Assembly (NCBI RefSeq): GCF_044324875.1
Contig: NZ_CP172185.1
Strand: one strand, 5' to 3'
Origin: Escherichia coli
GTDB taxonomy: Bacteria > Pseudomonadota > Gammaproteobacteria > Enterobacterales > Enterobacteriaceae
Length of the DNA: 64,000 nucleotides
Part shown: in pieces, positions 46,710-47,281 of the stretch
Layout of the letters: each line of letters starts with the position of its first letter
Numbering within the stretch: position 1 is the stretch's first letter
Program-made: the position numbers and the translations under genes
Notes under the pieces: generated by a model
The model's input: the letters and a program-made list of their open reading frames with translations, nothing else
Database searches by the model: none
What the model was told of the DNA's origin: nothing

Positions 46710-46826
46710 GGTGGGCGATTCTAATTAGCCAACAGGATTCGCGCCACTCATTTTTCTATGCTTATATTTAGTTTTGCACCTTATTACTTCACTAGGTGAT
46801 CACTTTATTGATGGTTATTAAACCAA

Positions 46827-47201
46827 TCACCAGCAAGAAGTGAAAAAACTGTGAGTAAGCGGGTGATAAATGGTAAAAGTCATCTTGCTATAACAAGGCT
46901 TGCAGTGGAATAATGAGGCCGTTTCCGTGTCCATCCTTGTTAAAACAAGAAATTTTACGGAATAACCCATTTTGCCCGACCGATCATCCACGCAGCAATG
47001 GCGTAAGACGTATTGATCTTTCAGGCAGTTAGCGGGCTGCGGGTTGCAGTCCTTACCGGTAGATGGAAATATTTCTGGAGAGTAATACCCAGTCTGTTTC
47101 TTTGATAATTGCGCTGTTTTTCCGCATGAAAAACGGGCAACCGACACTCTGCGCCTCTTTGAGCTGACGATAACCGTGAGGTTGGCGACGCGACTAGACA
47201 C
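46827..47201 (-). CDS. yceQ: yceQ-like ORF antisense to the rne leader; doubtful protein-coding gene
   Basis: 124-aa ORF in the rne leader; an ORF of this kind has been annotated in K-12 but codon usage looks non-genic. Confidence 0.2.
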
Positions 47202-47281
47202 GAGGCCATCGGTTCACACCCGGAAAGGCGTTACTTTGCCCGCAGCTTAGTCGTCAATGTAAGAATAATGAGTAAGTTACG
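46921..47281 (+). promoter_or_regulatory. rne promoter and long autoregulatory 5' UTR (about 361 nt by established knowledge)
   Basis: 572-bp gap between divergent rluC and rne; coordinates inferred from the known leader length. Confidence 0.5.

Follow-up and report, generated by a model that had tools for sequence, protein, structure and literature searches.

The window analysed here is a stretch of 64,000 nucleotides from the chromosome of Escherichia coli, and this report concerns the interval within it that separates rluC from the gene for RNase E, rne (Table 1). The interval runs from 46710 to 47281 and measures exactly 572 bp. It had been singled out in the original prediction as unusually long, and this holds up, as no gap between credible open reading frames (ORFs) in the window is longer, the runner-up being 386 bp and the median 37 bp. 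The spacing between the two genes is kept across 111 Enterobacterales species, with a median of 572 and an interquartile range of 569.5-589.5. Within E. coli, the stretch 46600-47400 is carried by 5,425 of 5,426 complete genomes, and the copy in the window is identical (100%) to that of NZ_CP148331.1. The interval contains a long 5' untranslated leader for rne, the promoter from which that leader is transcribed, a double DnaA box and, on the minus strand, a 124-codon ORF that corresponds to the K-12 gene yceQ and is referred to by that name below.

Table 1. Features of the rluC-rne interval and of its borders, in window positions.
Feature	Positions	Strand	Basis
rluC CDS (23S rRNA pseudouridine synthase), left border of the gap	45750..46709	-	ORF list, RefSeq annotation of identical DNA
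Highly conserved block upstream of rluC, with TATATT at 46763-46768	46741..46768		Per-position conservation, 108 species
Antisense ORF, 124 codons, GTG 47201 to stop 46827-46829; yceQ/b1085 of K-12; judged non-coding	46827..47201	-	ORF list, K-12 annotation, coding tests
Double DnaA box CTGTGAGTAAGCGGGTGATAAA, directly upstream of rne P1	46849..46870		Exact sequence found
rne P1 promoter: -35 TTGCTA, 18-nt spacer, extended -10 TG-n-AATAAT	46885..46914	+	Promoter scan, conservation
rne 5' untranslated leader, 361 nt, cis-acting element for RNase E feedback	46921..47281	+	RF00040 match, covariation
hp2 stem-loop: outer helix 46973-46985/47015-47027, inner stem 46990-46993/47001-47004	46973..47027	+	Covariation; loop region invariant
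Large branched 3' domain, closed by long-range helix 47034-47044/47238-47248	47034..47248	+	Helices 3-10 of the structure
Invariant GAG of the rne ribosome-binding site, upstream of ATG 47282	47270..47272	+	Alignment columns G350, A351 and G352, 42 genera
rne CDS (RNase E, 1061 aa), right border of the gap	47282..50467	+	ORF list, RefSeq annotation of identical DNA

The structured leader of rne

RNase E autoregulation through a long leader is textbook biology, and the rne leader is reportedly the autoregulatory element of the RNase E mRNA. When the stretch 46300-47700 was searched with all Rfam families, the single match was RF00040 (rne5, the RNase E 5' UTR element), found on the plus strand at 46921-47257 with a score of 260.1 bits (E = 3.2e-82). 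The match spans the full model (positions 1-333 of 333), exceeds the gathering score of 180 and stops 24 nt short of the ATG of rne on the same strand. This arrangement, with rne5 directly upstream of rne and on the same strand, is common to 111 species. The start site of rne, G 46921, corresponds to the first position of the Rfam model and yields a 5' UTR of 361 nt, which is also the length given in the literature (PMC10989929). The RNase E-dependent feedback that acts on the rne mRNA through the leader is summarised in the same source.

Detailed evidence for structure in the leader comes from an alignment of 42 genera, for which RNAalifold gave a structure of 51 pairs. Compensatory changes, in which both sides have changed and pairing has been kept, are present in 29 of these pairs. 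Within the alignment, 95.8% of the leader cells are paired, compared with 30-36% when the partners are slid by 1-3 columns, and cells with both sides changed number 128 against 32 in shuffles; none of 500 shuffles matches any of the observed measures. The paired cells include 199 of the G-U type and 22 of the A-C type, and reading the other strand instead lowers pairing to 87.5%. Because the G-U cells far outnumber the A-C cells, the structure is assigned to the sense strand of rne. The minimum free energy of the leader is no better than that of shuffles (z = -0.66) and is therefore uninformative, so the case for structure rests on the covariation, the G-U asymmetry and the covariance model.

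The loop region of hp2, the stem-loop described in the literature as the sensor to which RNase E binds, is invariant. A 20-mer from this stem-loop, GCAGCAATGGCGTAAGACGT (46992-47011), is matched exactly in the genomes of at least 120 species across Enterobacterales, and the outer helix that surrounds it shows compensatory change in six of its nine pairs.

In several genera the leader carries an insertion of 89-128 nt, which reaches ~250 nt in Raoultella (L111; these labels denote individual loci in the comparison) and in Enterobacter sp. 10-1 (L095). The other carriers are Klebsiella oxytoca (L082), Citrobacter youngae (L036), Citrobacter sp. Cu233 (L039), Citrobacter braakii (L071), Pseudocitrobacter (L035 and L061), Kluyvera (L040, L089 and L105) and the locus L055. 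The insertion point corresponds to window positions 47059-47065, where the hairpin with the least conservation in the 3' domain has its base. The core of the insert, which includes CCCCAGAAGCTTAC and GTAAGTGTCTGGGGTGAG, resembles the consensus of the ERIC repeat; we found no published description of an ERIC-like insert in the rne leader. When the copy from C. youngae is used as a query, each E. coli genome contains a median of 5 unannotated matches with 60-80% identity. The rne5 model still scores 201-229 bits across the insert, and the Raoultella leader falls below the gathering score. Two further loci, both from MAGs, are atypical in their spacing, and in both the hp2 loop is intact but the leader that surrounds it has diverged. 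In Fux382 (L032) the distance from hp2 to rne is 424 nt, and in an uncultured Enterobacterales (L009) the distance from hp2 to rluC is 514 nt, although the placement of the extra DNA in these two loci by pairwise alignment is unreliable.

Promoters and DnaA boxes upstream of the leader

A promoter scan of 46500-47500 returned P1 of rne as its sole sigma-70-like site. The hexamers of P1, together with their flanks (46876-46895 and 46903-46916), rank with the best conserved positions when the upstream half of the gap is aligned across 108 Enterobacterales species. Taken with the rne5 match, this bears out the original prediction that the gap holds the rne promoter and its autoregulatory leader. 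In the same scan, the rluC promoter was not located, the P2 and P3 promoters of rne were not recovered and the minus strand gave no sigma-70-like site.

P2 and P3 are two weaker promoters of rne, with start sites reportedly 145 and 109 nt ahead of that of P1 (Ow et al. 2002). If these distances hold, the two starts would be near 46776 and 46812. Between rluC and the rne promoters, two blocks (46741-46768 and 46716-46729) are nearly invariant across the 108 species, and these may belong to the rluC promoter or 5' UTR, to the P2 promoter of rne, or to both. The TATATT in the first block fits as the -10 element of P2, and the block as a whole is a candidate for that -10 and/or for part of the divergent rluC promoter.

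Directly upstream of P1, the sequence CTGTGAGTAAGCGGGTGATAAA at 46849 reads on the opposite strand exactly as tTTATCACCCgcTTACTCACAg, the double DnaA box published for a DnaA ChIP-seq peak. It contains two closely spaced DnaA-box-like 9-mers, and conservation of the boxes across species is moderate. Binding in vivo comes from the literature, where the peak has been placed at K-12 coordinate 1144772, 'upstream of rne' (PMC11317965).

Natural variation within E. coli at this locus is very limited, as almost all genomes in an evenly spread sample are 100% identical. One example of an IS1-disrupted yceQ was recovered from this sampling, in strain Z22-2 (NZ_CP159750.1; positions 2248-2945 of locus L123). 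The IS1 sits at window position ~46876, where it splits the yceQ ORF. The insertion point falls after the DnaA boxes and ahead of the P1 -35 element. P1, the leader and rne are intact, and in this natural isolate the upstream promoters and the DnaA site are separated from P1.

In the reading that we favour, P1 transcribes an rne mRNA that begins at 46921 and carries the structured leader, and the two weaker promoters upstream, which are known from the literature, add to rne transcription. RNase E binds hp2 in the leader and hastens the decay of its own mRNA, providing feedback control and RNase E homeostasis; this binding and feedback are taken from the literature. DnaA, whose binding is likewise taken from the literature, has its site directly upstream of P1. 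The yceQ ORF is a by-product, an open frame that happens to lie opposite the leader, the promoter and the DnaA boxes.

Alternatively, the minus strand of the leader may give rise to a non-coding antisense RNA, or to a long 5' extension of the rluC transcript, that modulates rne as one half of a divergent 'excludon'. This could operate through transcriptional interference, or through the formation of a duplex that is then cleaved by RNase III. The pair rne-yceQ is one of 16 divergent excludons called by ExcludonFinder in at least 50% of 58 E. coli RNA-seq samples, a listing that may reflect some minus-strand reads, and the antisense strand of the leader folds slightly better than shuffles (z = -1.91). 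However, the excludon call is nearly automatic at this locus because the rne 5' UTR covers the annotated body of yceQ, and we rejected the divergent overlap as proof of antisense transcription since the two overlap by construction. The promoter scan provides no promoter-like site from which a minus-strand transcript would start within 46500-47500, and the asymmetry between G-U and A-C cells places selection on the structure of the plus strand. Moreover, every conserved block of sequence is explained by the leader, P1 or the DnaA boxes. Regulation of rne by a transcript of the minus strand is thus very unlikely in our judgement.

The open frame opposite the leader

The antisense ORF overlies the leader, P1 and the DnaA boxes. 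The original prediction did not connect it with a known gene model, yceQ (b1085) of K-12 MG1655, under which this frame is listed as a 'DUF2655 domain-containing protein' of 106 aa that starts at an internal GTG, equivalent to window position 47147. No PGAP feature is present at this position in the E. coli genomes inspected. The sequence AAGAGG lies six bases ahead of GTG 47147, a workable spacing for a Shine-Dalgarno-like (SD-like) element, and is the one feature of the ORF that favours coding; the same six bases are complementary to CCUCUU, a conserved arm of one of the leader's helices. When the gap is shuffled with its dinucleotides preserved, 2% of the shuffles contain an ORF of 124 aa or more, so the length of the ORF is mildly unusual for one region and expected genome-wide. 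Shadow ORFs that reach 100 aa number 48 in the window, and the longest of them is an open frame of 560 aa on the minus strand (48773-50455), antisense to the C-terminal half of rne. This frame shows how little ORF length alone means in the window.

Evidence on whether the frame is maintained by selection comes from 114 sequences, made up of the 111 species loci, two E. coli records and the window. In these, the yceQ frame as it passes hp2 stays free of stops for as few as 11 and as many as 197 codons (median 70), and the ends of this stretch shift from one sequence to another. Most genera outside Escherichia have 1-nt indels or a premature stop in the frame. The indels are seen in Enterobacter, Kosakonia, Lelliottia, Trabulsiella, Mangrovibacter, Cedecea and some Citrobacter, and a stop at codon 101 is common to Citrobacter and Salmonella. 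The stop-free stretch is longer in the yceQ frame than in the other antisense frames, which have medians of 32.5 and 18 codons. We rejected this as evidence of coding because the stops in the other frames sit inside the invariant hp2 anchor and because the frame was chosen as one that is open in E. coli. A frame conserved in the absence of the leader was not seen among the species loci compared or among the divergent homologues that were traced to DNA. A comparison of frame and leader conservation had been put forward with the original prediction as a means of checking it, and its outcome is that the leader structure covaries strongly and the yceQ frame is not kept.

The pattern of substitution provides further insight. 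Codon positions 1, 2 and 3 of the yceQ frame have accumulated 491, 323 and 429 substitutions, respectively, with no third-position excess. The dN/dS ratio of the frame is 0.81 for E. albertii, 0.80-1.02 for Citrobacter and 0.54 for Salmonella, whereas rne and rluC give ratios of 0.00-0.08 in the same genome pairs. In E. albertii the 'synonymous' divergence of the yceQ frame is only 0.015, roughly 30-fold lower than the 0.44-0.58 of the flanking genes, and for Citrobacter and Salmonella it is 4- to 11-fold below the flanking genes. This low 'synonymous' divergence and the substitution pattern mean that constraint acts on the nucleotides regardless of their codon position. The conservation of the yceQ sequence belongs to the leader, the promoter and the DnaA boxes and not to a protein.

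Codon usage and similarity searches give a comparable picture. The codon-usage score of yceQ, -0.21 per codon, is below that of all 62 credible ORFs in the window (mean 0.29, minimum 0.017) and is also lower than the shadow-ORF mean of -0.05. The translated ORF matched no family in Pfam and none in NCBIfam at E values up to 1, and a search of the PDB gave chance-level matches only, with E above 0.5. Among 5.8 billion clustered proteins, 32 clusters were matched. The named ones are all from Enterobacteriaceae, have lengths of 68-156 aa and coverage of 28-98%, and are mostly partial. Three divergent homologues were traced to their DNA, and all three proved to be antisense to an rne5 match. The view expressed in the original prediction, that the ORF is more likely a chance frame than a gene, is therefore upheld by frameshifts and a premature stop in relatives, a dN/dS near 1, non-coding codon usage and the lack of a family match.

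It has to be considered whether yceQ could be a real but young gene, an orphan ('DUF2655') restricted to Escherichia that overlaps the leader and is translated weakly or in conditions that have not been sampled. The frame is intact and nearly invariant in essentially all of the 5425 E. coli genomes and in E. albertii, the SD-like element precedes GTG 47147, the curated annotation of K-12 still lists the gene, with sporadic annotation elsewhere, and the ORF exceeds the length found in 98% of shuffles. Intactness is uninformative, however, as the whole region is near-invariant in these two species regardless of codon position, which is evident from the dN/dS and 'synonymous' divergence given above for E. 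albertii. In addition, the frame has a codon usage worse than that of the average shadow ORF, no sigma-70-like site that could serve it was found on the minus strand of 46500-47500, and neither the Pfam nor the NCBIfam models recognise the product. Ribosome-profiling reads are absent (Price et al., 10.1101/038851), and both transposon and IS1 insertions in yceQ are tolerated. A young protein-coding gene is, on balance, highly improbable. An Escherichia-specific role of some kind, either for a weak or conditional de novo peptide from the yceQ frame or for an antisense RNA that tunes RNase E synthesis on top of the known feedback, is very improbable as well, although the Escherichia DNA is too invariant to separate constraint on a peptide from constraint on an RNA. 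The 572-bp gap is almost certainly the control region of rne, and the minus-strand ORF an accidental open frame opposite conserved non-coding elements; the Rfam match, the covariation of the leader, the conservation of the promoter and the failed coding tests all come from the present analysis.

Published work on yceQ and related systems

The identity of the rluC-rne gap and the non-coding verdict on yceQ are already known, and the literature has reached the same conclusion by experimental routes. Price et al. (10.1101/038851) obtained no ribosome-profiling reads for YceQ in three growth conditions, and it is from this work that the absence of translation is taken here. They also noted strains with a disrupted ORF, saw transposon insertions in yceQ only in the orientation able to drive rne, and concluded that no protein is encoded. 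The TraDIS study of Goodall et al. arrived at the same conclusion and attributed the 'essential' label given to yceQ by Keio and PEC to loss of the rne promoter. Similarly, Rousset et al. observed a CRISPRi fitness effect at yceQ only on the strand that blocks rne.

Genome-recoding work adds a further line of evidence, as codons of yceQ could not be replaced synonymously (TCG to AGC and TCA to AGT) and had to be redesigned. The first three TCG/TCA codons of yceQ, at 47142-47144, 47127-47129 and 47103-47105, lie inside helices of the leader, and from their spacing we infer that these are the three published recoding positions. 'Synonymous' recoding of yceQ in genome-engineering projects was not tolerated because the changes alter the rne leader.

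The practical lesson concerns annotation, as the Keio and PEC lists have counted yceQ as an 'essential gene'. Comparative tests that reveal no protein-level selection support dropping yceQ from lists of genes and of essential genes, and in design work the stretch 46827-47201 is better treated as regulatory DNA and RNA.

Compared with known systems, the leader in the window is the rne5 element itself. It agrees with RF00040 in its full-length match, its position, its length of 361 nt, the invariant loop of hp2 and the covarying helices, and the window copy is without difference, being 100% identical to those of other E. coli genomes. The antisense ORF shares the coordinates and frame of the K-12 model of yceQ, with the 124-aa ORF being an upstream extension of the 106-aa model. 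The model formerly carried the DUF2655 label, but current Pfam and NCBIfam contain no match to it and PGAP makes no call. Likewise, it is essential according to the Keio and PEC lists, whereas the later literature describes it as non-coding and non-essential. In these respects yceQ resembles other spurious ORFs in the 5' UTRs of essential genes, such as yaaY, in which an open frame lies over a functional non-coding element. As with these, 'synonymous' recoding of yceQ harms the neighbouring essential gene. It also resembles antisense shadow ORFs in general, and in the window shadow ORFs with lengths of 100-560 aa are common. Antisense shadow ORFs usually oppose a coding sequence, whereas yceQ lies in an intergenic leader, and for this reason it escaped the usual overlap filters and entered the essential-gene lists.
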